DNA of 25,016 bases from a virus (IMGVR_UViG_2675903352_000013:1-25016), one strand, 5' to 3'. Positions 1-11,748 are shown, counted from the first letter of the stretch. Program-made: numbers and translations. Notes: generated from the letters alone by a model not told the origin.

Positions 1-285
1 TCACTTAAATAAGTGATACTGGTTGTCTGGAGATTCAGGGGGCCAGTCTATAATAGCAGTGCGGTTAACTTCCCTCACACTCACCAGAAGTGATTCCAGA
101 CGCGTAACGGTGAAACTCCCCGGCCCAAGATTATCCAGGGCCACCAGCAAACGAGCTGTAAGCTCTGCGTCGCTGTCGTTCAGCGTTTTCACCATTCTGG
201 CCGCTACACCTGTGCTATAGCGAGATATCCAGATAGCATGGGCAATCGATTCATCACGCAGCCGTTCATTCACTGTTTGCATCAT
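1..285 (-). CDS. Phage head protein, N-terminal fragment (possibly head morphogenesis/minor capsid); gene continues beyond the window start
   Basis: ATG ATG at 285..280 on the minus strand, overlapping the portal stop (266..268); position immediately downstream of portal in the packaging operon. Family assignment is by synteny only. Confidence 0.35.
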   Translation of the reverse strand: MMQTVNERLRDESIAHAIWISRYSTGVAARMVKTLNDSDAELTARLLVALDNLGPGSFTVTRLESLLVSVREVNRTAIIDWPPESPDNQYHLFK

Positions 286-1674: not shown

Positions 1675-3993
1675 TTAAATCCGAAGTGATGTAACTCTTC
1701 CGGTCGGTTTGACAATAGGGAATTGCTTAACAATAAAATAACCTCCGGCATCATTCGGGTGATCGTTGCCAGATTTTTTATCAGGCTCACCCTTATCATC
1801 CCAGACCTGTTGCTCCAGAGATTCGGCATATACCGGACAACGCTTCACATTAACTTTATAGCGACGCTCACCATTGGCATTGCAGAACATTGCATTCATT
1901 GAGTTAACGCGATCTTTTACTGGCGGATTCGAACTGTTTACAACAACGTTAAAACCAGCCTGTTTAAGCTGAGCAATATCCGTCGCACTTGCGTTATTTG
2001 ATTTTCTGGAATCCCCGGATGCATCAGGATAAATATAAATTTCCCTTACTTTCCGATAATCATTCCCGTCATATAACCAGAAGCGCTCTTTAATAATACG
2101 GATCATATCTGGTGTATCGTAAGCGTTAATGATTTCAGTTACTGCGCATGGAAGCCCAAAACGTAACACATGAACGACTCCAGCCATTTTTCCGACGTTA
2201 AAATCCATCCCGATATATATCGGCTCACCTGGCTGTTCCTCTTCTTCGCAATTATTCAGTTTTCGGTCAAACTGATGGTAAACAGTACCACTTGTCAGGT
2301 TAGTAAACTGTCCTCGAAGATAGGCTTTAATCAGCTCTGGAGGATATGACTCAAGGAGCGAGGGAATGTAATCTGCTGGCAAATTCTTTTCATTATCGAA
2401 AGTAGATGCCTGCACCAGACCATACAGTGAGGCCAGCTCTGTTTTTTCACGTACGGCTTTAACAAACTGCTCGTAGACAAATTTGAATCCTTCCGGCGTG
2501 GTTGTAACGTCAATACCGTTACGAAGTCCATCAACCTTATAACGCATACGCGCAATTATCTTGCGCCACGCTGTTCTGGCTTTTTCCTTCGGCAAAATGT
2601 CCAGTTCATCCACCAGCGCATTACCAATTTTGAAACCGACGATCGTTTGCGGCTTCTCCATCGTTCTGCAGATAGTGGTTCCACGATACTGACGTCCGTA
2701 ATAAAAATGAACTTCTTTATTTCCCTCGTTAATTTTTACATTTAGCCCCCAGTCGGCAGCAACTTCTTCAACTGTAGGATAAAAAATATCGCGAATTTGT
2801 GGATATGTAGGCGCAAAATATCCCTGATTTATACCCGGATGCTCCCAAATCCCCTTACATATGCCACCACATCCAACCCATGTTTTACCGCTATTGTGAT
2901 GAATCGTCCCATCAGCAGTTACGTAGCAGTTATTATCCAATACCTGGAGGTCATAATATGGCTCGGCCTTCTGCAACAGTGTTACACTCAATATGTTGCA
3001 GGTTTCGATTAAGGAGTTTGGTTTTGACGCCTCTTGACCGTTTAATTTGTGATTTAGCACATCCAGAACGTACCGTTTCAGAAGTTGCTTCTCTGGCAGG
3101 TTGTGACCGCAGTCATGTTTATCGTTGCATATCTCGTTATGGGTTAACGCTGAAACAACACCAGAAGCCTGTCCCTCGAGAAAGTGCGAAGGACAGAATC
3201 CTCGCTCTTGCTGATGGTCACCGTACGTCGGCAGAGATCGCGGCGGAAGTTGGTTGCACAGAAAAGCACGTTCAAAATATTCTCCGAATTCACAACGCCA
3301 ACCGGCTACCCTGTGGCGCCAGAAAGGGTGAGTTGAACCCCAGCTTTCGTGGTGGTCGAATTGTTGATCTGGATGGATATGCCGTTGTTCCAGCGCCTGC
3401 TGACCATCCATATATGCGCAGAACAGGCATGATGTTTGAACATCGTTTGATCGCTGAAAAGAAGCTGGGGCGTTATCTGCTGCCATCAGAAGTTGTTGAC
3501 CATATAGACGGGCTTCATCTGCATAACACCCCAAGTAATCTGCGAGTTTTTGATTCAAACGTGGATCACCTGCGTGCAACGATTTCGGGACGGCGGCCAA
3601 ACTGGTCAGAAGAAGGTTTTGCGAAGATGCAAATACCTTCACCGATTCGTCCAGACTATCCACAGATCGATAGCTACCGTCAGCGCAAAAAACGCGGTGA
3701 TGTCCGCTTGCTACAAATTCTCCTCGCTGCGTCACTACTCGGTATAGATTCGACACACCTTTTGGGTACGCACCACCACTTAGCGAAAGCTCAAATCGAT
3801 TATTCTCATCCGACCAAGATAAAACGCGCATTGGTCGAGTTATTTCCTGAATGGGTAGAATCCCATTCTCTGTAACCACAGGCGTACTTCCCCTCAGGCA
3901 ACCAAAACCAGCAACATAGGCTTTAAATTTATGAGGCATAGAAAGAAATCGCGCCTGAGGCACATTAAGCGTCGGAGAGATCATCTTCATCAC
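1675..3993 (-). CDS. Terminase large subunit (TerL) carrying an in-frame intein within the Walker A P-loop
   Basis: Continuous 772-aa ORF. N-extein ends KAYVAGFG and C-extein begins SGKTWVGCGG, so removing residues 32..367 restores a canonical P-loop AGFGSGKT. Downstream motifs: Walker B-like NALVDELD, and nuclease-domain acidic motifs IYIGMDFNVGK and YPDASGDS. Start overlaps the putative terS 3' end by 29 nt. Confidence 0.8.
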   Translation of the reverse strand: MMKMISPTLNVPQARFLSMPHKFKAYVAGFGCLRGSTPVVTENGILPIQEITRPMRVLSWSDENNRFELSLSGGAYPKGVSNLYRVVTQRGEFVASGHHRVFCADGSYRSVDSLDESVKVFASSQNLLLTSLAAVPKSLHAGDPRLNQKLADYLGCYADEARLYGQQLLMAADNAPASFQRSNDVQTSCLFCAYMDGQQALEQRHIHPDQQFDHHESWGSTHPFWRHRVAGWRCEFGEYFERAFLCNQLPPRSLPTYGDHQQERGFCPSHFLEGQASGVVSALTHNEICNDKHDCGHNLPEKQLLKRYVLDVLNHKLNGQEASKPNSLIETCNILSVTLLQKAEPYYDLQVLDNNCYVTADGTIHHNSGKTWVGCGGICKGIWEHPGINQGYFAPTYPQIRDIFYPTVEEVAADWGLNVKINEGNKEVHFYYGRQYRGTTICRTMEKPQTIVGFKIGNALVDELDILPKEKARTAWRKIIARMRYKVDGLRNGIDVTTTPEGFKFVYEQFVKAVREKTELASLYGLVQASTFDNEKNLPADYIPSLLESYPPELIKAYLRGQFTNLTSGTVYHQFDRKLNNCEEEEQPGEPIYIGMDFNVGKMAGVVHVLRFGLPCAVTEIINAYDTPDMIRIIKERFWLYDGNDYRKVREIYIYPDASGDSRKSNNASATDIAQLKQAGFNVVVNSSNPPVKDRVNSMNAMFCNANGERRYKVNVKRCPVYAESLEQQVWDDKGEPDKKSGNDHPNDAGGYFIVKQFPIVKPTGRVTSLRI
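2893..3900 (-). other. Intein (Hint domain) inserted in the TerL P-loop, about 336 aa
   Basis: Read directly from the minus-strand translation: block A-like CLRGSTPVVTENGILPIQEI starting with Cys (codon 3900..3898); block B-like GEFVASGHHRVF; block F/G-like YYDLQVLDNNCYVTADGTIHHN followed by +1 Ser (codon 2892..2890). No LAGLIDADG or HNH motif in this frame between the blocks. Confidence 0.7.
2958..3875 (+). CDS. HNH endonuclease (HNH_3-like motif) with two N-terminal HTH-like segments, encoded antisense within the TerL intein
   Basis: Plus-strand ORF (track 2880..3875). ATG at 2958 is preceded by GGAGG at 2946..2950 with a 7-nt spacer. Motif DGYAVVPAPADHPYMRRTGMMFEHRLIAEKKLGRYLLPSEVVDHIDGLHLHNTPSNLRVFDSNVDHL matches the classic phage HNH homing-endonuclease pattern. 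Two HTH-like repeats upstream (RTVSEVASLAGCDRSHVYRCISRYGL and RTSAEIAAEVGCTEKHVQNILRIHNA). The C-terminal ~100 aa may be non-functional read-through constrained by the opposite-strand frame. Confidence 0.6.
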   Translation: MARPSATVLHSICCRFRLRSLVLTPLDRLICDLAHPERTVSEVASLAGCDRSHVYRCISRYGLTLKQHQKPVPRESAKDRILALADGHRTSAEIAAEVGCTEKHVQNILRIHNANRLPCGARKGELNPSFRGGRIVDLDGYAVVPAPADHPYMRRTGMMFEHRLIAEKKLGRYLLPSEVVDHIDGLHLHNTPSNLRVFDSNVDHLRATISGRRPNWSEEGFAKMQIPSPIRPDYPQIDSYRQRKKRGDVRLLQILLAASLLGIDSTHLLGTHHHLAKAQIDYSHPTKIKRALVELFPEWVESHSL

Positions 3994-5059
3994 TCCTCAC
4001 TCTGGCATCAACCACATTAATATTGATCGCCACAGGCTGGGGATGTTCATTACCCTCCACCGTTTCGATCTCTTTGCGCAGTTTCTGGTTTTCCATTCTG
4101 CGCCGTTCAATTTCCAGTTCCTGCAGTCGCTTATCTGCACATAATGCCCCGCCAGCGGAAAGCAAACGCAATAATTCACGCCGGGCGGCAGCTTTATTCT
4201 CCAGCAGGATCTCAACGCCGAATTTTCCGAGCTTTGCTCCTGCATACAATTGCCGCGCATTTCCATCAAGCAAAGTGGTATCAGCCATATAAAGCTGACC
4301 TGTACCTTCTCCACCGCATTTCGGACAGTCTGGATTTGGTATGGCGCTATCAACGAAACCGAGGCCACCATATTCAGGTTCTGGTTTACCATCTTTGGAT
4401 GCCTGCGCGGCAGCCCTGTCAAATTCTGCTATATCGCGCCACTGATAGAGGTGATTCTCCCCCCAGCAATAGCGACAGTTAACACGGCGAAATTGCGCAA
4501 GCTGATTGGGATCAGCCTGCACGATGGCCATCAACTGACTCACCAGTAAATCCAGGTCTGCGGTATAGCGTTTCTGGTAATGATTGCGAAAGTAGCTGAT
4601 GGCACGAAAAACCCTGGCATTTCTAAGCATACGACTGGCATTGCTGTTTGCTGTCGCACCTTGCCCCTCGTAACCAGCCAGGCGGTATGCCTCTGTCGGC
4701 TTTTTCCCCTGAGCAACCAACATGGCGAATTTTGCCTGCTGGTCAGAAATACCGAATTCATCGGGGCAAAACGAAATTTCTTCCGTGTCCCCCTCAATCA
4801 GGAGTGCATCGGATACAGCCTTTTTTTTCTGAGATTTTCCGTTTTGCTTTTGCGCAGTCTGCGCAGTTTTTTTTCGCGCACTTTTTTGCGCAGTTTTGCG
4901 CACTTCTGTCTGCGCATTTTTCGGAGGTTTCTTGATGTAACGACGGGCTGTTGCGTAATTCAGTCCCTTTGCTTCACACCACGCCACCGGAGATACACCG
5001 GAGCGGGTGTATTCAGCAATATATTCCTGCTGCAACGCCCCCCAGTCCGGTCTGCTCAT
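3965..5059 (-). CDS. Putative terminase small subunit / DNA-packaging DNA-binding protein
   Basis: 364-aa ORF with ATG at 5059..5057, immediately upstream of and overlapping TerL. N-terminal HTH-like segment (VSPVAWCEAKGLNYATARRYI), Lys/Gln-rich low-complexity linker, CxxC...CxxC pair, C-terminal coiled-coil-like tail. Assignment rests on synteny and architecture. Confidence 0.45.
   Translation of the reverse strand: MSRPDWGALQQEYIAEYTRSGVSPVAWCEAKGLNYATARRYIKKPPKNAQTEVRKTAQKSARKKTAQTAQKQNGKSQKKKAVSDALLIEGDTEEISFCPDEFGISDQQAKFAMLVAQGKKPTEAYRLAGYEGQGATANSNASRMLRNARVFRAISYFRNHYQKRYTADLDLLVSQLMAIVQADPNQLAQFRRVNCRYCWGENHLYQWRDIAEFDRAAAQASKDGKPEPEYGGLGFVDSAIPNPDCPKCGGEGTGQLYMADTTLLDGNARQLYAGAKLGKFGVEILLENKAAARRELLRLLSAGGALCADKRLQELEIERRRMENQKLRKEIETVEGNEHPQPVAININVVDARVRSDEDDLSDA
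4842..4925. repeat. Array of six (T)GCGCA(G/C)-T-rich direct repeats at roughly helical spacing inside the putative terS gene
   Basis: Sequence ttttgcgcagtctgcgcagttttttttcgcgcacttttttgcgcagttttgcgcacttctgtctgcgcattttt; GCGCA cores near 4852, 4861, 4877, 4888, 4898 and 4911. The corresponding protein segment is a low-complexity K/T/A/Q stretch. Confidence 0.6.
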
Positions 5060-5062
5060 CAG

Positions 5063-5314
5063 TTAGTCCTGATTTTTATCCACCCTGAGTAATGCACGCA
5101 GAGCAAAGGCATCCCCTTTTCTGGCAAGCTTAAACAATGCCGCCCGTAGCTCGGCTTCACCTTTCGCTCTGCCCTTACGGATGGACGCATAAAAATTTGT
5201 CATTGTTTCCCGATTTTCTTTCAGTCTGTTCAGATCAACATCCAGAACGTCAGCGATTTGTTGTGCAGTCATCCGGCATGCTGCCAGAGACTCGACTTTC
5301 GAATACGGAATCAT
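5063..5314 (-). CDS. Small HTH-containing protein directly upstream of terS
   Basis: 83-aa ORF, ATG at 5314..5312 preceded by a GGGGGTGA Shine-Dalgarno-like sequence; stop TAA is 3 nt before the terS ATG. HTH-like segment MTAQQIADVLDVDLNRL. Confidence 0.45.
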   Translation of the reverse strand: MIPYSKVESLAACRMTAQQIADVLDVDLNRLKENRETMTNFYASIRKGRAKGEAELRAALFKLARKGDAFALRALLRVDKNQD

Positions 5315-6200
5315 TTATCACCCCCATTGATATGCAGGGTGTCTTCTTCCTGTATTTTTCGTGAAGGATTTTTACTGCAGCGTTGTTCCAGGTGACCTGA
5401 TGGTGAATGCGTTTATGGCTGGCGCCCATCAGTGAGATTTTTACGCACGACGGCGCATACATGACGGAGTAAAAACTTTTAACGTAGGTACCGGAATCCA
5501 GATACAGTTCGGTCATTCCGCCGCTGTTTTTCTGCGTTTGCTTCTGCCCTAACTGGACAGCGCCAATCGTCAAAAACAATTCACCACGACGACCGAGATT
5601 CGTGTATGTATTCACATCCTCGTTAATACGCCCCATAAATGAGAATGGTCGGTCAACAGAACAAATAAAGCTGTTCATTGCTTTGCGTTTCACCCATGCA
5701 GCATGACCACCATTATCACCAAGAAAGTCTCCCCCCTGCGCCATAGCGATGGAAAGCGCAGGAATTGATTCGTAATACGCCAGCATTTCAGAAAGGATCG
5801 CGTCCAGTTTCCTTATCGGAAAATAAGCCTGGTCATAGTTGCGATCTACCCGAAACTGAAACTCGTGATAGTCGTCATCAAGCTGGATGTAGTATTTACA
5901 CCCAACCTTTTTTGCCAGGCCCAAACAGGCATTCCTGGCATAAAAGATTGAACGTCGATCGCCAAAGTTGTCGGCTTCGTCAAAACGACTGGCGATATCG
6001 GCTTTGGAAAACACCAGCACCTGCTCACCAAATTCTGCTACGTACTGATGCCGGGTTTTATCTTCATCATCAACAACGATAAAAATTTTCCCGGTATAGC
6101 CAGCACGACGCAACGTCCGGTAAGTCAGAACTTTGTCCGGTCGCCCGTGAGTCAGAATAAAGGCGCAAAAATCATCACGCATATTACTCCTCCTCGCCAT
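5250..6200 (-). CDS. Hypothetical protein with GT-A-like glycosyltransferase signatures
   Basis: 316-aa ORF, ATG at 6200..6198 with SD GGTGGAG; overlaps the ParB-like gene by 17 nt. N-terminal pattern FILTHGRPDKVL...GKIFIVVDDED and a DxD-like motif YIQLDDDYHEF resemble the GT-A fold. The fold call is tentative. Confidence 0.5.
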   Translation of the reverse strand: MARRSNMRDDFCAFILTHGRPDKVLTYRTLRRAGYTGKIFIVVDDEDKTRHQYVAEFGEQVLVFSKADIASRFDEADNFGDRRSIFYARNACLGLAKKVGCKYYIQLDDDYHEFQFRVDRNYDQAYFPIRKLDAILSEMLAYYESIPALSIAMAQGGDFLGDNGGHAAWVKRKAMNSFICSVDRPFSFMGRINEDVNTYTNLGRRGELFLTIGAVQLGQKQTQKNSGGMTELYLDSGTYVKSFYSVMYAPSCVKISLMGASHKRIHHQVTWNNAAVKILHEKYRKKTPCISMGVINDSVFESRVSGSMPDDCTTNR

Positions 6201-6963
6201 GCATGATCTCCACCATGCGCTGCGTCATCCTGACAAACCCATTTTCAATTGCCTGCTGATAATCAATGATCACCAGAGCCGATTCCTCAAAAAGGCTCTG
6301 AATTTCAGCGGGGGCGTGAGCGTAATAGTCCGCGATTCTGCTGAAATTAAACACCGTGTGACGTTCTGCCGCGCACAGAAGGAATTTCTCAATATCAGGA
6401 TCAAGGGACACCGAACGTGTCCGGCTGATCAGCTCCTGAGTTTTCGTATCGTCGTACAGTTCACAGATATCCGGTTTATCGCCTGACGGCTCATAAACAG
6501 GCGTATCAATTTTCGTCGTATACGGCTCCTCCTCATTTCCTGTACCAGGCAAAATATCCGTCAACAGTTCATCAATTTCTGTCGGGCTGAAGCCTGTCAG
6601 GGAGACATCAAAATCAGCATTAATTAGGTCCGACAGCTCCATCCGTAACAGATCTTCATCCCAGCCAGCATTCATCGGCAGGCGATTATCTGCCAGACGG
6701 TACGCCTTTTTCTGATCATCCGTCAGACCAGACAGAACGATGACCGGAACGAAATCCATTTTGAGCACTTCAGCCGCCATAACGCGACCGTGACCCGCAA
6801 TAACTTCGCCCTTTTCATCAATCAGCACCGGATTAGTCCAGCCAAATTGCTTAATGCTTTCTACCAGTTGCGTCACCTGCTCAGGGCTGTGTGTCCTGGC
6901 ATTGTGTGCATACAGAGACAGCTCTTGTAACGGGCGATAGACGATCTTCAATTTCTCGCTCAT
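6184..6963 (-). CDS. ParB-like nuclease domain protein
   Basis: 259-aa ORF, ATG at 6963..6961 with SD GAGG. N-terminal ParB/Srx-like domain (YRPLQELSLYAHNARTH, LVESIKQFGWTNPVLID, IAGHGRVMAAEVL, KKAYRLADNRL); acidic C-terminal half. Confidence 0.7.
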   Translation of the reverse strand: MSEKLKIVYRPLQELSLYAHNARTHSPEQVTQLVESIKQFGWTNPVLIDEKGEVIAGHGRVMAAEVLKMDFVPVIVLSGLTDDQKKAYRLADNRLPMNAGWDEDLLRMELSDLINADFDVSLTGFSPTEIDELLTDILPGTGNEEEPYTTKIDTPVYEPSGDKPDICELYDDTKTQELISRTRSVSLDPDIEKFLLCAAERHTVFNFSRIADYYAHAPAEIQSLFEESALVIIDYQQAIENGFVRMTQRMVEIMHGEEE

Positions 6964-7248
6964 ACAGCCTCGCTTTATTAATAAAAAAGCCCGCTATCGG
7001 CCAGTGCGCAGGGTGCGCGGCGGGTGCAGATAACGAGCTTTGACATTATCGAAGCCCCCTATCAAAGGAGCTTCTGTAATGTCAGTCCAGAACGAACGTA
7101 ACCTTTGTATTTGTCGCTCGCCGTACAAGACGCGCTGCTTCGCGTTGCATTTCATCGATAACTTTTGGCGTCATCGGCTAATGCGCATATTTACATTCAA
7201 TCACTGCAAAAAATCCCGTTCATCGTTTCGCTGTCTGGTGGGATAACT

Positions 7249-7527
7249 TCAACGTTTAATCGTGCCATTGGTTTGTGCTGCCCTGTTTTTCTCAAAAGTC
7301 CTGATATCAGCCTTATCCCTGTTGCACTGTGCTAACGCTGACAACAATGCAACATTCAGGTTAAGGCTTGCCCCCCACGTAAACGGGTCGGGTAAATCTG
7401 GCTGGGGTGTTTCAGCCGTCAGACTGGCTGGTAACGGAACCACCGGCACCGACACGTATACCGTTCGCGTATTCGTGCAACCGCTTAACTGCGCCAGAAG
7501 GAACGATACGAACAGCGCAATCATCAT
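7249..7527 (-). CDS. Rz1-like outer-membrane spanin lipoprotein, starting inside Rz in another frame
   Basis: Internal ATG ATG at 7527..7522; signal peptide with lipobox MMIALFVSFLLAQLSGC followed by a Pro-rich mature region. Starts within Rz and extends past its stop. Confidence 0.5.
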   Translation of the reverse strand: MMIALFVSFLLAQLSGCTNTRTVYVSVPVVPLPASLTAETPQPDLPDPFTWGASLNLNVALLSALAQCNRDKADIRTFEKNRAAQTNGTIKR

Positions 7528-7804
7528 CCGCAACAGCCACTTTGATATCTTTCTGGATTCTCTGTGACTCCAGTGCGATCTGCTGTTTTGCATGCTGGTT
7601 AGCCTCTATAACTGTGTTGATGATTTGCAGTGATTGCAGGACGTTACGGGTAATGGCTGTTGCTGATTCAGCATTTCGTACAGCCTCATCAGCGCGCTCC
7701 TTTTCGTGTTGATATTTGCTGTAGTAATGCCCGGCATACCAGATAAAAGAACCGATGACGGTAACAAAGAAGGCAACAATAACCAGCTTATATCTCAGCT
7801 TCAT
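7412..7804 (-). CDS. Rz-like inner-membrane spanin
   Basis: 130-aa ORF, ATG at 7804..7802, overlapping the endolysin 3' end. N-terminal transmembrane helix (LVIVAFFVTVIGSFIW) followed by a predicted coiled-coil periplasmic domain. Confidence 0.6.
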   Translation of the reverse strand: MKLRYKLVIVAFFVTVIGSFIWYAGHYYSKYQHEKERADEAVRNAESATAITRNVLQSLQIINTVIEANQHAKQQIALESQRIQKDIKVAVADDDCAVRIVPSGAVKRLHEYANGIRVGAGGSVTSQSDG

Positions 7805-8264
7805 TTACCACCCCACCAGCTTCTTTAAATCGGGCAATCAGGTCACCGATTCTATGTTCATACTGACCGTAACCAGCGCCCGGCAACGAAGCCCAGATAT
7901 TGCTGCAACGGTCGATTGCCTGACGAATATCGCCGCGGTCAATCATCGGTAATGCGCCACGCTCTTTAATCTGCTGCAGCGCTACAGCATCCTGACTTTC
8001 TGGAGAAAAATCTTTCAGGCCAAGTTGCTTGCGGTAGGCATCCCACCAGCGTGAAAGAAGCTGGTAACGTCCGGCGGCTGTTGATTTGAGTTTCGGATTT
8101 AGCGTGACAAGTTTGCGGGGGTGATCGGAGTAATCAGTGAACAGTTCGCCACCGACAATAACATCATAACCGTGATTTCTGGTTTTCTACCGTCCGTTAT
8201 CCGTTCCTTCTGACCATGCCACCATATCAAGGAAAGCTTTACGCTGGGAATTCAGTGTCTGCAT
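7788..8264 (-). pseudogene. Lambda R-like endolysin (lytic transglycosylase) with an in-frame premature amber codon
   Basis: Minus-strand translation from ATG 8264..8262 reads MQTLNSQRKAFLDMVAWSEGTDNGR, then TAG (plus-strand cta at 8187..8189), then continues in the same frame KTRNHGYDVIVGGELFTDYSDHP...KEAGGVVNEAEI to TAA at 7790..7788. Total 159 codons; closely resembles lambda R as recalled, which has Gln at this position. Confidence 0.75.
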
Positions 8265-8267
8265 TAA

Positions 8268-8627
8268 TTACTCCTTATGGGCACCAAACTTGTTACCGAT
8301 GACCCTCATTGCCGCACCACGAATAGCATCAACACCAATCAGCCCCACCCCACCACCAATGGCAACAGAAAGTGATTTAGGCCATCCGACATACTCAAGC
8401 GCGGATGCAAAAGTCAACGTCAGAGCACCACAGAGCAAAATCTCAAGCGTTTTTCGTTTCCAGCCCCCACCACCGCCAAAATAGGCGATGCGCAAACCAG
8501 CCATAACGATCGACATAATCACTGCACCCAGCGGTGTATCTCCACGCCACCAGCTCTGAAACAACTCCAGCCAGTCCGGCCAGGTATTTGGGTTATGAGG
8601 CATTTCATCATCTCTCACCTCGCACAT
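8268..8627 (-). CDS. Holin (possible dual-start holin/antiholin)
   Basis: 119-aa ORF, ATG at 8627..8625, directly upstream of the endolysin. Two Met codons (M1 and M9) ahead of hydrophobic segments; Gly-rich membrane segments. Confidence 0.55.
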   Translation of the reverse strand: MCEVRDDEMPHNPNTWPDWLELFQSWWRGDTPLGAVIMSIVMAGLRIAYFGGGGGWKRKTLEILLCGALTLTFASALEYVGWPKSLSVAIGGGVGLIGVDAIRGAAMRVIGNKFGAHKE

Positions 8628-8650
8628 ATCGCGGGTGCAAATTGAGGGAA

Positions 8651-8680
8651 TAAAAAATCCCCGAATATTCCGGGAGCGGA
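8651..8680 (-). terminator. Rho-independent terminator-like hairpin (third of three between Q and the lysis genes)
   Basis: Minus-strand CCCGGAATATTCGGGG hairpin followed by ATTTTTTATT. Confidence 0.4.
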
Positions 8681-8723
8681 AACGGGGAAAGGCGTTGCAC
8701 TAAATGGGCCTGTCTGCGGCCTT

Positions 8724-8750
8724 AAATAAAAAACCCCGGCAAATGCCGAG
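8724..8750 (-). terminator. Rho-independent terminator-like hairpin (second of three)
   Basis: Minus-strand CCTCGGCATTTGCCGGGG stem followed by TTTTTTATTT. Confidence 0.45.
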
Positions 8751-8971
8751 GTCAGTTAATCGTTGCCGCTGTTAGTGCCGCGGTGCACTATCTCTTTATC
8801 AGGCTACTTACGCGTTAAACCGGGTGCCAACCGTAACTCAGTGATGCTTTACGCTTCCTCTCCTTCACTACGTCGCCATGGGAGCCCGACCAGATTAACG
8901 CTGTCGTCACGTTGCCAAAATATGGCATCCAATGAATTCTTTTTATTTAGCTATTTCATTTTTCTATCCGT

Positions 8972-9003
8972 CAGAAACAACAAAACCCGCTCGGTGGCGG
9001 GTT
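8972..9003 (-). terminator. Rho-independent terminator-like hairpin, candidate tR' downstream of a putative Q-dependent late promoter
   Basis: Minus-strand AACCCGC-caccga-GCGGGTT stem followed by TTGTTGTTT. A promoter-like TTGCAT-17-TTCAAT lies on the minus strand around 9050..9090. Confidence 0.45.
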
Positions 9004-9100
9004 CTATTAAAGTTCAATTGCACTTGGTTCGCCTCGCGATACAGCTTTGCGAAGCGTAGCTGAATTGAATCAGTTTATTGGCAAAAATGCAATAACTTTT

Positions 9101-9643
9101 TTATTGGCTTTCTCCGCATAACGCTAATTTCATTGGTATATACAGAATGTGCTCAGCAACACTCAACCATGCGTCAATGCGATTTCTGCAAGTTTTCAAG
9201 CTCCAGCCAGGGCGATACTCATTTAACTGTTGTGCCATTTTCAGCTTACTCATCCCCCGTCCCTCATACCGTTGTCGAAGGACGCTAATCAATCCCGGAT
9301 GTTCTGTCAGCACCTCACTTATAACCCGATCAATACATAACGCCTCTGCATCAGTACAATGCGCCAGCCAGCTCTTTTGCTTCCCGTTGATCATCTCACG
9401 TAAAAATGCTTCCAGCTCCGGCTTCTCTATTCCCGCTTTTTTCATCCTGCGCAGGGCTTCATTGACGGCTGTTTTCGTCAATTTTTTGGATGCCAGCAAC
9501 TGGTTAAACATATTTCCCATCTTACCGCCGCCAATATACGACCAGCGCCCCCACATGCGCAGTTTTCCCTGAATCCAGACACTTTCCAGCGTGGTGAGAC
9601 GAAGGTGTTCCCCGCTTTTGCCTGTATTTGTTGGGTAAATCAT
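9101..9643 (-). CDS. Putative late-gene antiterminator (Q-like), by position
   Basis: 180-aa ORF, ATG at 9643..9641 with strong SD AAGGAAGG; ATGA overlap with the upstream gene's stop. It is the last gene before the terminator cluster and lysis cassette. No sequence-level family match recalled. Confidence 0.4.
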   Translation of the reverse strand: MIYPTNTGKSGEHLRLTTLESVWIQGKLRMWGRWSYIGGGKMGNMFNQLLASKKLTKTAVNEALRRMKKAGIEKPELEAFLREMINGKQKSWLAHCTDAEALCIDRVISEVLTEHPGLISVLRQRYEGRGMSKLKMAQQLNEYRPGWSLKTCRNRIDAWLSVAEHILYIPMKLALCGESQ

Positions 9644-11087: not shown

Positions 11088-11243
11088 TTACTCCTCAGGT
11101 TCGTAAGCTGTGAAGACAGCGACCTCCGTCTGGCCGGTTCGGATTCGTACCTCGCAGAGGTCTTTCCTCGTTACCAGTGCCGTCACTATGACGGTTAAAC
11201 AGATGACGATCAGGGCGATTAACATCGCCTTTTGCTGCTTCAT
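11088..11243 (-). CDS. hokD: Hok/Gef-family type I toxin (HokD/RelF-like)
   Basis: 51-aa product from the internal ATG at 11243..11241: MKQQKAMLIALIVICLTVIVTALVTRKDLCEVRIRTGQTEVAVFTAYEPEE, matching the Hok/Gef pattern and HokD as recalled. The track ORF extends in frame upstream to 11360. Confidence 0.85.
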   Translation of the reverse strand: MKQQKAMLIALIVICLTVIVTALVTRKDLCEVRIRTGQTEVAVFTAYEPEE

Positions 11244-11319
11244 AGCCTGCTTCTCCTGTGTAAGTTCACAGAGATATTGCTCGCCTGGATACTGTTTCTT
11301 ATCGGTTATAGTGGTCATA

Positions 11320-11748
11320 TCACTCTCCTTTTCCCTTAAGCATTGCAGCGCGACAGGCATTCCAGCCCTTCACATAACCTACCATCATCAACTGGTCATT
11401 CATGGCGGGCAGCATTGTGCGGGACGTACTGATTTCCTCCGGCACTACCGGAACTGACGGCACAGACAGTAAAGCCTTGGCCATACACATTGCTTCCAGT
11501 CCTGTAGCCTCAGCTATACCGTCACGAATAAGTTCAAGCCCCTCTTTTGTTAACAGTTTCATTCTTTTATACATGACTGGCACCACCGGCTCTGCTTCCA
11601 GTGATGCCAGCGCGACTTTAAATGCGGTAAGTACGTTTTTAACCACATCGATTTTGAATACTATTTCATCACATACAAACGATTTATCGTCTACTACCGT
11701 TTCAATTCCGGTAATCGTGTTTTGTAGCCATTTGGTTAATTCAGTCAT
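11320..11748 (-). CDS. Hypothetical protein
   Basis: 142-aa ORF, ATG at 11748..11746 with SD AAGGG. No family recognised; its 3' end overlaps the in-frame region upstream of hokD. Confidence 0.5.
   Translation of the reverse strand: MTELTKWLQNTITGIETVVDDKSFVCDEIVFKIDVVKNVLTAFKVALASLEAEPVVPVMYKRMKLLTKEGLELIRDGIAEATGLEAMCMAKALLSVPSVPVVPEEISTSRTMLPAMNDQLMMVGYVKGWNACRAAMLKGKGE

Follow-up and report, generated by a model that had tools for sequence, protein, structure and literature searches.

A linked pair of genes in a Rac-like prophage

The viral sequence IMGVR_UViG_2675903352_000013:1-25016 (hereinafter the window, that is, the whole stretch of 25,016 nucleotides (nt) that was analyzed) is a Rac-like lambdoid prophage with intR, recE/recT and sieB, a replication module, a gene for a Q-like antiterminator (DUF1133), holin and spanin genes, and then packaging and head genes. 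The DNA of the window is 91-94% identical to Rac-like Escherichia coli prophages adjoining ttcA. On the minus strand of the late operon, flanked by the spanin (lysis) genes and the terminase small subunit gene (terS), are the two genes considered here, one for a ParB-like protein of 259 amino acids (aa), hereinafter the partner, and the other for a glycosyltransferase of the TAGT family, hereinafter the enzyme. The initial annotation, made from the sequence alone, had described two coupled open reading frames (ORFs) of 259 and 316 aa at the head of the packaging genes, and the ORF calls bear this out.

The main new result of the present analysis is the linkage of the two genes, which holds in both directions. 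On the enzyme side, a scan of one genome per species yielded 66 loci, of which four are truncated by the end of a contig or are gene fragments; in all 62 evaluable loci, the partner ORF is located immediately upstream on the same strand. In the reverse scan, patterns of the C-terminal domain (CTD) of the partner identified 80 loci on viral contigs, and in all 79 with room downstream, the enzyme follows on the same strand (abutting or overlapping the partner gene in 71, with one gene between in eight). The co-occurrence analysis suggested in the initial annotation thus found enzyme and partner together in every evaluable locus. Among isolated phages, all 28 records that carry the CTD fall within the 34 records that carry the enzyme; the enzyme without the CTD is found in six records, namely two degenerate copies in Lactobacillus phages and a distant version in a Porphyromonas phage (26% identity), each present twice. 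In addition, one database protein (P0382) is a natural fusion of a TAGT domain, a ParB domain and the CTD. The two genes form an obligately linked two-gene unit.

This unit is widespread. Database search detects homologues of its proteins in the thousands, and the hosts include Enterobacterales, Vibrio, Bacteroidota, Firmicutes, Veillonella, Nocardia, Acidobacteriota, Planctomycetota and Saccharibacteria (with Proteobacteria and Actinobacteria also given as host groups). The pair is present in the haloarchaeal virus HHTV-2, which infects Haloarcula, as well. Across these hosts, the enzyme shows 40-60% identity to the window protein. DNA of the pair is matched in 1264 of the 5426 complete E. 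coli genomes, with at least 80% of the 2.3-kb query covered in 857. The names assigned in E. coli by the Prokaryotic Genome Annotation Pipeline (PGAP) are ynaK or ParB/Srx protein for the partner and 'GREB1-related protein' or 'hypothetical protein' for the enzyme. A literature search found no paper in which a ParB-plus-TAGT pair is characterized.

The glycosyltransferase

The larger protein had been compared to GT-A nucleotide-sugar transferases on account of its N-terminal strand-loop pattern and a DxD-like motif, and the relationship turns out to be closer than mere likeness. The protein matches the Pfam TAGT family (PF20691) with 123.3 bits against a cut-off of 27.5 (E = 1.7e-35); the match spans residues 14-228 (window 5517-6161) and profile positions 4-205 of 205. 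It also matches phrog_842 (7.5e-100), whereas no model in NCBIfam or PADLOC matches it. An R...DDD...ED motif has been described for phage GT-A DNA glycosyltransferases (bioRxiv 10.1101/2023.12.21.572611). In the 316-aa protein, the TAGT catalytic signature R...DDD...ED(Y/F) is represented by R20, D108-D110 of the previously noted YIQLDDD motif, and N193-E194-D195. Among 62 homologues, R20, D108-D110 and E194-D195 are kept in 96-100%, and the three aspartates of YIQLDDD in 98-100%. The residue following ED is valine rather than Y/F, with a conserved tyrosine three positions on in these 62 sequences.

Structure prediction is consistent with this assignment. The AlphaFold2 (AF2) models of the two proteins were built from shallow alignments of 17-18 sequences, with database hits as the input. 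In the model of the enzyme, the predicted local distance difference test (pLDDT) score is about 90 in the N-terminal half; the values for residues 11-155 are ~75-96, except for residues 71-90 (56-69). A Foldseek search of PDB with this model retrieved the GT-A enzymes SpsA, ColGalT1 and SunS/ThuS (E = 7e-5 to 1e-3), with glycogenin also among the GT-A matches, and a search of BFVD retrieved TAGT proteins (E = 1.5e-20, template modelling score 0.61-0.68). Neither a non-glycosyltransferase fold nor a match of the pair to a family of defined function was found. Judging from the profile matches, the motif and the predicted fold, the 316-aa ORF is an intact TAGT glycosyltransferase of the GT-A fold.

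The enzyme is basic (isoelectric point (pI) 8.7; family median 8.9) and continues past the end of the Pfam model with a conserved C-terminal extension (residues ~219-271). A tblastn search of 50,697 phage records returned 34 records, with no T-even phage matches at 1e-10. The enzyme thus represents a subfamily apart from the T2/T6 enzyme.

The ParB-like partner

The assignment of the 259-aa protein to the ParB/Srx-like proteins, likewise made in the initial annotation, is upheld by a match to phrog_620 (5.1e-87), by the alignment of ParB box II, and by fold matches. The top Foldseek matches are CTP-bound ParB (E ~1e-5), Noc, KorB and sulfiredoxin, and SerK is retrieved as well. The Pfam ParB_N domain (PF02195) scores 24.4 bits, slightly below the cut-off of 26.3, and is precomputed on nearly all homologues. 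The partner consists of an N-terminal nucleotide-binding domain of the ParB/Srx type, a linker and a CTD (Table 1). The AF2 model has pLDDT of 74-93 across most of residues 11-130. In the box II alignment, GERR of ParB corresponds to GHGR of the partner, with the catalytic Glu replaced by His. The counterparts of the ParB phosphate-binding residues R23, R60 and N93 are retained in the partner; in 48 sequences, N21 is conserved in 100%, R23 in 93%, G57 in 97%, N93 in 95% and D102 in 93%. Across phyla, the box II arginine R60 is kept in 60-90%. The N-terminal domain also matches the PADLOC model MTase_II (PDLC03229; 1e-36, model positions 14-151 of 436) and the 'DNA methyltransferase' family phrog_498 (2.1e-49, model positions 31-171 of 633). 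Only the N-terminal 140 residues match these methyltransferase-fusion models and the partner has no methyltransferase domain; its N-terminal domain is closest to the ParB domains that are fused to DNA methyltransferases.

The linker is predicted to be disordered at residues 137-165 (pLDDT below 50 at 137-160) and contains the motif YTxKIxxPxYEP, in which Y148, P155 and Y157 are invariant in 31 representatives with 29-46% identity to the query and conserved in 97% of 48 locus sequences. The CTD is modelled as helices at residues 166-255, and F194, L195, R201, A211, Y214, Q222, L230, D234, A238 and G242 are invariant in the same 31 representatives. The CTD family comprises 1187 clusters at 50% identity, in which this domain is almost always located at the C-terminus of ~260-aa proteins. 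No significant Pfam match was obtained for the CTD, and comparison of its profile with all PDB sequences revealed no relative (the best match, to designed armadillo repeats at E = 0.017, was judged to be due to chance).

The partition-protein model TIGR00180 scores 32.8 bits against a cut-off of 58.45, no helix-turn-helix (HTH) DNA-binding domain was detected in the partner by Pfam scan or in the AF2 model, and no ParA gene was found among the ORFs of the window. By these comparisons, the partner is a protein of the ParB/Srx fold but not a partition ParB. The literature search yielded a single functional report on ynaK, the counterpart of the partner gene in E. coli K-12: in a 2026 screen that offers no mechanism, overexpression in E. 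coli MG1655 increased the minimum inhibitory concentrations of six antibiotics by a factor of three to six (PMC12924614); we do not think that this effect has any bearing on the intact pair.

Gene order and expression

The longest ORFs of the partner (6184-6963) and the enzyme (5250-6200) overlap by 17 nt, as initially annotated, but the overlap is probably replaced by a 1-nt spacer in the actual genes. The true start of the enzyme gene is most likely the ATG at 6182-6180, which yields a 310-aa protein matching the E. coli annotation, because homologues in other genera begin with MRDDF, that is, at Met7 of the 316-aa ORF, and the junction reads GAGGAGGAG-TAA-T-ATG, with the start codon behind a strong Shine-Dalgarno sequence. 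The two genes are tightly coupled whichever start is used. The 3' end of the enzyme gene shares 23-65 nt with a small terS-like gene, after which come terS, terL (the terminase large subunit gene) and the portal gene.

Table 1. Features of the two-gene locus and adjacent genes (window coordinates)
Feature	Position	Strand	Basis and remarks
Partner gene, 259 aa (PGAP: ynaK / 'ParB/Srx family N-terminal domain-containing protein')	6184-6963	-	ORF, phrog_620, Foldseek, dN/dS
ParB/Srx-type nucleotide-binding domain, residues 1-135	6559-6963	-	AF2, box II alignment, conservation; acidic, variable between phyla
Acidic linker with Y148-T-x-K-I-x-x-P155-x-Y157-E-P	6469-6558 (motif 6487-6522)	-	Predicted disorder, conservation
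Helical CTD, residues 166-259	6187-6468	-	Conservation; signature of TAGT-linked partners
Shine-Dalgarno sequence of the glycosyltransferase gene, GAGGAGGAG	6187-6195	-	Strong; within the last codons of the partner gene
Stop codon TAA of the partner gene	6184-6186	-	Direct sequence reading
Probable start codon ATG of the glycosyltransferase gene	6180-6182	-	1 base past the partner stop; homologues start MRDDF
Predicted TAGT-family GT-A glycosyltransferase gene, 310 aa from Met7	5250-6182 (longest ORF to 6200, 316 aa)	-	Pfam PF20691, phrog_842
DDD, D108-D110, metal- and nucleotide-sugar-binding motif of GT-A enzymes	5871-5879	-	Conservation in 62 homologues
Small gene, 83 aa in the longest ORF, 69 aa in the E. 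coli annotation	5063-5314	-	phrog_309 (2.1e-21); resembles part of the terminase small subunit
terS	3965-5059	-	Pfam Terminase_2, Terminase_6N, Terminase_6C (scan of terS and terL); packaging genes directly downstream
terL	1675-3993	-	Pfam Terminase_2, Terminase_6N, Terminase_6C (scan of terS and terL)
Q-like antiterminator gene	9101-9643		DUF1133; further upstream of the holin gene

The arrangement fits expression of the pair from a single lambdoid late transcript, because a scan of positions 4900-9200 detected no sigma-70-like promoter (compared with 6.1 expected in shuffled sequences) and found a terminator-like hairpin at 8753-8732, upstream of the holin gene, with the gene for the Q-like antiterminator located further upstream. 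The ratio of nonsynonymous to synonymous substitution rates (dN/dS) in comparisons with close relatives is 0.06-0.085 for the enzyme and 0.12-0.165 for the partner; both ORFs clearly are real genes under purifying selection.

The interval between the lysis genes and ynaK, which contains trkG in related E. coli Rac-like prophages, is in the window a 285-nt spacer (6964-7248) with a GC-rich stem and a run of T just upstream of the partner gene.

Neighborhoods and variant loci

The genes around the pair differ among the loci. The pair is located within ~3 kb upstream of TerL proteins of three unrelated families (T7-like, Terminase_3 and Terminase_6), the portal proteins belong to different families as well, and replication genes are found on the other side of the pair; in Lactobacillus phage c5, the pair constitutes the first two genes after the cos site. 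When gene clusters are counted over ~108 locus groups, the enzyme is present in 97 and the partner in 89, and the next most common family, the terminase large subunit, in 23. No third gene family recurs with the pair within 8-10 kb across 146 loci; the pair needs no other conserved phage gene. No recurring TET/JBP family is present among the 25 top families listed in the Pfam analysis of 146 neighbor-cluster representatives, a listing that bears on recurrent families rather than on single occurrences. A C5-methyltransferase is encoded ~7 kb upstream of the pair in five loci.

Several loci contain additional genes, namely a second TAGT, a fusion of TAGT with a methyltransferase, or a fusion of a His-phosphatase with a nucleotidyltransferase inserted between partner and enzyme. 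The elaborated loci (L051:3518-5275, L033, L048 and L052) include a TAGT domain fused to an S-adenosylmethionine-dependent methyltransferase with a second TAGT after it, as well as two TAGT genes that flank or follow the partner gene. In eight viral loci (L121, L123, L125, L134 and L139-L142; e.g., L142:8695-9651), a fusion protein of 318-331 aa encoded between the two genes combines a cobC-like His_Phos_1 domain with a cytidylyl/adenylyltransferase-like domain (similar to RfaE domain II and TagD), which suggests that these phages might make a donor activated by a nucleoside diphosphate. In the same eight loci, the DxD region of the enzyme reads EYEDDY in place of QLDDDY. Glycan-building DNA hypermodification clusters grow by additions of this kind, which we count in favor of the reading presented below.

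Genes for ADP-ribosyltransferases are also found in the vicinity of the pair. Related loci encode a Mu-F-like minor head protein downstream of the portal (L001:120-1232; ON470614.1 26579-27691), which is annotated in one record as an NAD+-asparagine ADP-ribosyltransferase; the window contains only the start of this gene (1-285, minus strand). Scabin-like and enterotoxin-A-like ADP-ribosyltransferase domains are present among the neighbors of the pair in several loci. These ADP-ribosyltransferases probably are injected toxins of the MuF type.

A putative two-subunit DNA glycosyltransferase

The suggestion in the initial annotation that the pair is a DNA-modification module gains support from the TAGT membership of the enzyme and the methyltransferase-type ParB domain of the partner. 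The reading that we favor, and to which we assign close to an even chance, is that the pair is an autonomous, late-made DNA glycosyltransferase of two subunits, in which the partner activates or positions the enzyme in the manner of ParB176, the activator of a phage thymine dioxygenase (see below). The 310-aa protein would be the catalytic subunit, taking the sugar from a nucleotide-sugar at the DDD/ED site, and the 259-aa protein would be a dedicated accessory subunit, in which the CTD and the YTxKIxxPxYEP motif bind or activate the enzyme and the ParB/Srx domain helps it engage double-stranded DNA. Both proteins would be produced late, on the transcript shared with the lysis and packaging genes, so that replicated phage DNA might be glycosylated just before packaging and, as a result, protected from nucleases in the next host.

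The argument for this reading starts from the isolation of the pair. No other gene is conserved together with it, and its form stays the same although the virions of the phages are unrelated and the hosts belong to different domains of life; such constancy requires a universal acceptor. DNA is favored as this acceptor because of the TAGT precedent and the type of the ParB domain, and the breadth of the host range favors DNA over targets that are specific to a host or a virion. Late expression next to the packaging genes suggests that genomes are modified after replication and before they are packaged. A further and more specific proposition, which is doubtful in our estimate, is that the sugar is attached directly to an unmodified base (e.g., to an exocyclic amine), or to another universal position in DNA, without prior hydroxymethylation. 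The 3'-OH ends that terminase cleavage leaves on DNA were considered as an acceptor and rejected, given that ligation of the ends is required in cos phages such as c5.

Several observations weigh against a DNA glycosyltransferase assisted by a ParB domain. To our knowledge, all characterized enzymes of the TAGT and JGT type transfer to a hydroxyl, be it that of 5-hydroxymethylcytosine (5hmC), 5-hydroxymethyluracil (5hmU) or a base-borne sugar, and the canonical DNA bases have no hydroxyl acceptor. No TET/JBP dioxygenase, hydroxymethylase of the thymidylate synthase type or C5-methyltransferase is encoded in the window. Similarly, no dioxygenase, hydroxymethylase or C5-methyltransferase is annotated in the Rac-like phage vB_EcoS-666R9 or found in phage c5 (31.8 kb), where the largest unassigned protein, at 208 aa, is too small for a dioxygenase. 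The searchable literature reports no modified base for any phage that carries the pair. On the side of the partner, the protein is strongly acidic in every domain (pI 4.5, net charge -25), unlike a DNA-loading factor. Its ParB domain is the least conserved segment across phyla, whereas the linker motif and the CTD are nearly invariant. Partners reduced to the linker motif and the CTD, without a ParB domain, are encoded in five loci and in the 191-kb Vibrio phages; the ParB domain is therefore inessential to the chemistry, and the CTD is the obligate part of the partner. In addition, AF2 confidence is low for the C-terminal half of the enzyme and for the CTD of the partner. Finally, in the 5mYOX system, discussed below, mutations of the nucleotide-binding residues of ParB had little effect and no stable complex was trapped (PMC13229309).

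Alternative functions of the pair

The main rival, which we consider unlikely, is glycosylation of a protein, in the simplest form on the Tyr/Thr motif of the partner itself (Tyr148, Thr149 or Tyr157 of the linker), or else of a packaging, virion or host protein. Besides the enzyme, only the partner is universal in the module, its best conserved short element is this Tyr/Thr-rich motif within a disordered acidic linker, and its acidic nature, as against the basic enzyme, fits the role of a substrate or chaperone of that enzyme. A parallel is provided by glycogenin, which glucosylates its own tyrosine and is among the GT-A matches of the enzyme, as are the peptide S-glycosyltransferases SunS and ThuS. 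Protein O-GlcNAcylation has been reported for GREB1, an animal protein with a TAGT domain (PMC7968844), and the pair adjoins structural genes. However, the terminase and portal families are wholly different among the loci, which makes a shared virion or packaging target unlikely, and hosts ranging from Bacteroides to Haloarcula do the same for a host protein. As for the partner, the type of ParB domain it contains is otherwise found on DNA methyltransferases, and it is hard to see how self-glycosylation of a small protein would benefit such different phages. The acceptor could also be neither DNA nor protein, for example, RNA (at the 2'-OH, such as in tRNAs hit by anticodon nucleases), a nucleotide or an immune signal derived from one, or another universal metabolite, with a role in anti-defense or metabolic takeover. 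RNA and nucleotides would supply the universal hydroxyl that is needed; CTP, ATP or GTP is bound by proteins of the ParB/Srx fold, among which are small-molecule kinases (SerK) and sulfiredoxin (PMC12704722); and the phosphatase-nucleotidyltransferase fusion between the two genes in eight loci would suit such a role. Nevertheless, activity on substrates of this kind is not known for any family member, some partners lack the nucleotide-binding domain, the PADLOC matches are limited to the methyltransferase-type ParB domain, and late expression next to packaging genes is better suited to modification of the packaged genome than to early takeover. We regard this option as quite improbable.

A comparably low probability applies to the classical TAGT role, i.e., glycosylation of 5-hydroxymethyl-pyrimidines, or of sugars attached to them, with the dioxygenase or hydroxymethylase that makes these bases encoded in another part of the phage genome, or the bases supplied by the host or by a co-infecting phage. 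This is the sole demonstrated chemistry of the TAGT family, and the C5-methyltransferase present upstream in five loci would be compatible with it. Furthermore, ParB, glycosyltransferase and terminase are the most common neighbors of phage 5mYOX enzymes (27%, 31% and 19%, respectively), and thousands of 5mYOX-like sequences escape the Pfam model (PMC13229309). Against this role stand the absence of such genes from the window, vB_EcoS-666R9 and phage c5, the lack of a third recurring family near the pair, and the strong purifying selection on both genes in dioxygenase-free genomes. Least probable, in our view, are separate, ordinary functions of the two proteins, with the partner being a ParB-like nuclease or a partition or pac-site packaging factor, and the glycosyltransferase altering the envelope in seroconversion or superinfection exclusion. 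Database names such as 'chromosome partitioning protein' and 'ParB-like nuclease' point in this direction, phages commonly encode a ParB-like protein beside the terminase, and prophage GT-A enzymes such as TarP modify teichoic acid (bioRxiv 2023.12.21.572611). The strict two-way linkage and the natural fusion protein are at odds with separate functions, as are the missing HTH domain and the lack of ParA among the ORFs of the window. The enzyme, moreover, is soluble and basic, is made from the late transcript rather than in the lysogen, and occurs across Gram-negative and Gram-positive bacteria and in an archaeal virus, and the envelopes of these hosts differ. A small part of the probability is assigned to none of the readings given here.

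Additional features of the prophage

The TerL protein of the window consists of 772 aa as against 433, with a 336-aa insert in the Walker A motif (AGFG/C...HHN/SGKTW; 2893-3900, minus strand) that has the canonical intein ends Cys1, His-Asn and Ser+1. The opposite strand of the intein contains an ORF (2880-3875, plus strand) for a conserved 331-aa protein with HTH and HNH_3 endonuclease domains, for which 380 homologues were found. A prophage of Pseudomonas aeruginosa (L153) has an intein and an antisense endonuclease arranged in the same way. When the two are compared, identity in the central part of the intein is only 36% in the sense frame, as against 74% for the HNH protein encoded in antisense. 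It seems that the sense frame is merely held open and that selection acts on the antisense endonuclease. We know of no described intein with a homing endonuclease encoded in antisense. The terL insert is found in one of the 5426 complete E. coli genomes, where PGAP calls terL partial.

The gene for a lambda-R-type endolysin (~7788-8265, minus strand) is interrupted at codon 26 by an in-frame TAG, the corresponding codon in E. coli relatives being CAG (Gln), and the only ORF listed for it is a 52-aa C-terminal piece (7788-7946); this may reflect a lysis-defective prophage, suppression or a sequencing error. Finally, between the replication genes and the Q-like antiterminator gene, a 90-aa ORF (11088-11360, minus strand) matches the Hok/Gef type I toxins over residues 45-86 (Pfam E = 6.8e-23).

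Implications and comparison with known systems

Hypermodification of phage DNA shapes the outcome of restriction, CRISPR and type IV defense and is a source of biotechnology tools. The locus described here joins two loose ends in this field, namely solitary TAGT proteins without a substrate-making enzyme and the ParB-like proteins of modification clusters. The families themselves are known; what is new is the combination of a TAGT enzyme and an obligate ParB-CTD partner in the absence of an enzyme that makes the substrate. In this subfamily, TAGT is never solitary but always accompanied by a ParB-type partner bearing the distinctive CTD. If the pair glycosylates unmodified DNA, the chemistry of this modification would be new to the literature, and its carriers would include both temperate and lytic phages, with hosts in most bacterial phyla and a haloarchaeon, as well as prophages in about a quarter of the complete E. 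coli genomes. If DNA is the target, the pair would also explain the restriction resistance or poor sequencing of some temperate phage DNAs. The pair is common and is found in small culturable phages, among others.

The TAGT family includes the beta-glucosyl-HMC-alpha-glucosyltransferase of T2/T6, which adds a second glucose to glucosylated 5hmC, and solitary TAGT homologues, to which class the window enzyme belongs, have been identified in 288 of 753 phage genomes, with their role left open (PMC13216743, 2026). Other phage GT-A enzymes add sugars to 5hmC that a methyltransferase and a TET-like dioxygenase have produced; in the same work, ~65% of the mined glycosyltransferase contigs had no such neighbors and were set aside, and the trypanosome base-J glucosyltransferase (JGT) is a structural relative that acts on DNA (bioRxiv 2023.12.21.572611). 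The window enzyme shares with the T2/T6 and phage 5hmC enzymes the Pfam family, the predicted GT-A fold and the R...DDD...ED signature, and differs from them in its separate subfamily, the C-terminal extension, the obligate partner and the lack of an associated pathway for 5hmC or 5hmU. GREB1 also contains the TAGT domain and is the origin of the PGAP name 'GREB1-related protein', but it is a large eukaryotic protein that is reported to O-GlcNAcylate the estrogen receptor (PMC7968844); the name is uninformative with regard to the substrate of the phage enzyme.

The N-terminal domain of the partner shares its fold and the counterparts of phosphate-binding residues with the CTP-dependent clamps ParB, Noc and KorB. 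Unlike these proteins, the partner has no HTH or parS-binding domain, is very acidic, has His in place of the box II Glu, and is not accompanied by a ParA among the ORFs of the window. In the fusions of ParB and DNA methyltransferase (phrog_498, MTase_II), the N-terminal ParB part matches the partner, in which, by contrast, this domain is joined to a novel CTD and the apparent client is a separate glycosyltransferase. The non-specific prophage adenine methyltransferase M.EcoGII was considered as another possible ParB-bearing analogue and dropped because the respective paper gives it no extra domains (PMC5778455). A survey of the ParB fold reports frequent fusions to DNA methyltransferases and enrichment in prophages, without mention of glycosyltransferases (PMC12704722). 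According to an earlier proposal by Aravind and co-workers, as cited in PMC8256090, modification enzymes are guided to DNA by ParB proteins at the time of packaging.

The most similar arrangement is that of 5mYOX176 and ParB176 (O'Toole et al., PNAS 2026, PMC13229309), in which an enzyme that modifies DNA bases is likewise combined with a separate small ParB-like protein. ParB176 activates a phage thymine dioxygenase specifically on double-stranded DNA, and both of its end domains are needed (PMC13229309). ParB176 and the partner both contain a nucleotide-binding domain, an unstructured linker and a CTD and lack an HTH DNA-binding domain, a likeness that rests on the described layout, with the CTDs compared by description rather than by sequence. 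The genes of both systems are located near terminase genes, those of 5mYOX and ParB176 within phage DNA-modification clusters (PMC13229309). The apparent client in the window, in contrast, is a glycosyltransferase and not an Fe/2-oxoglutarate dioxygenase, and no dioxygenase is present; throughout the 62 and 79 evaluable loci, the gene beside the partner encodes a TAGT and never a 5-methylpyrimidine dioxygenase. Set beside ParB176, the partner is also distinguished by having its most conserved features in the linker motif and the CTD, with the ParB domain missing from some family members. If DNA is indeed the target, the principle of ParB as an enzyme activator would extend from the dioxygenases to a second class of enzymes.

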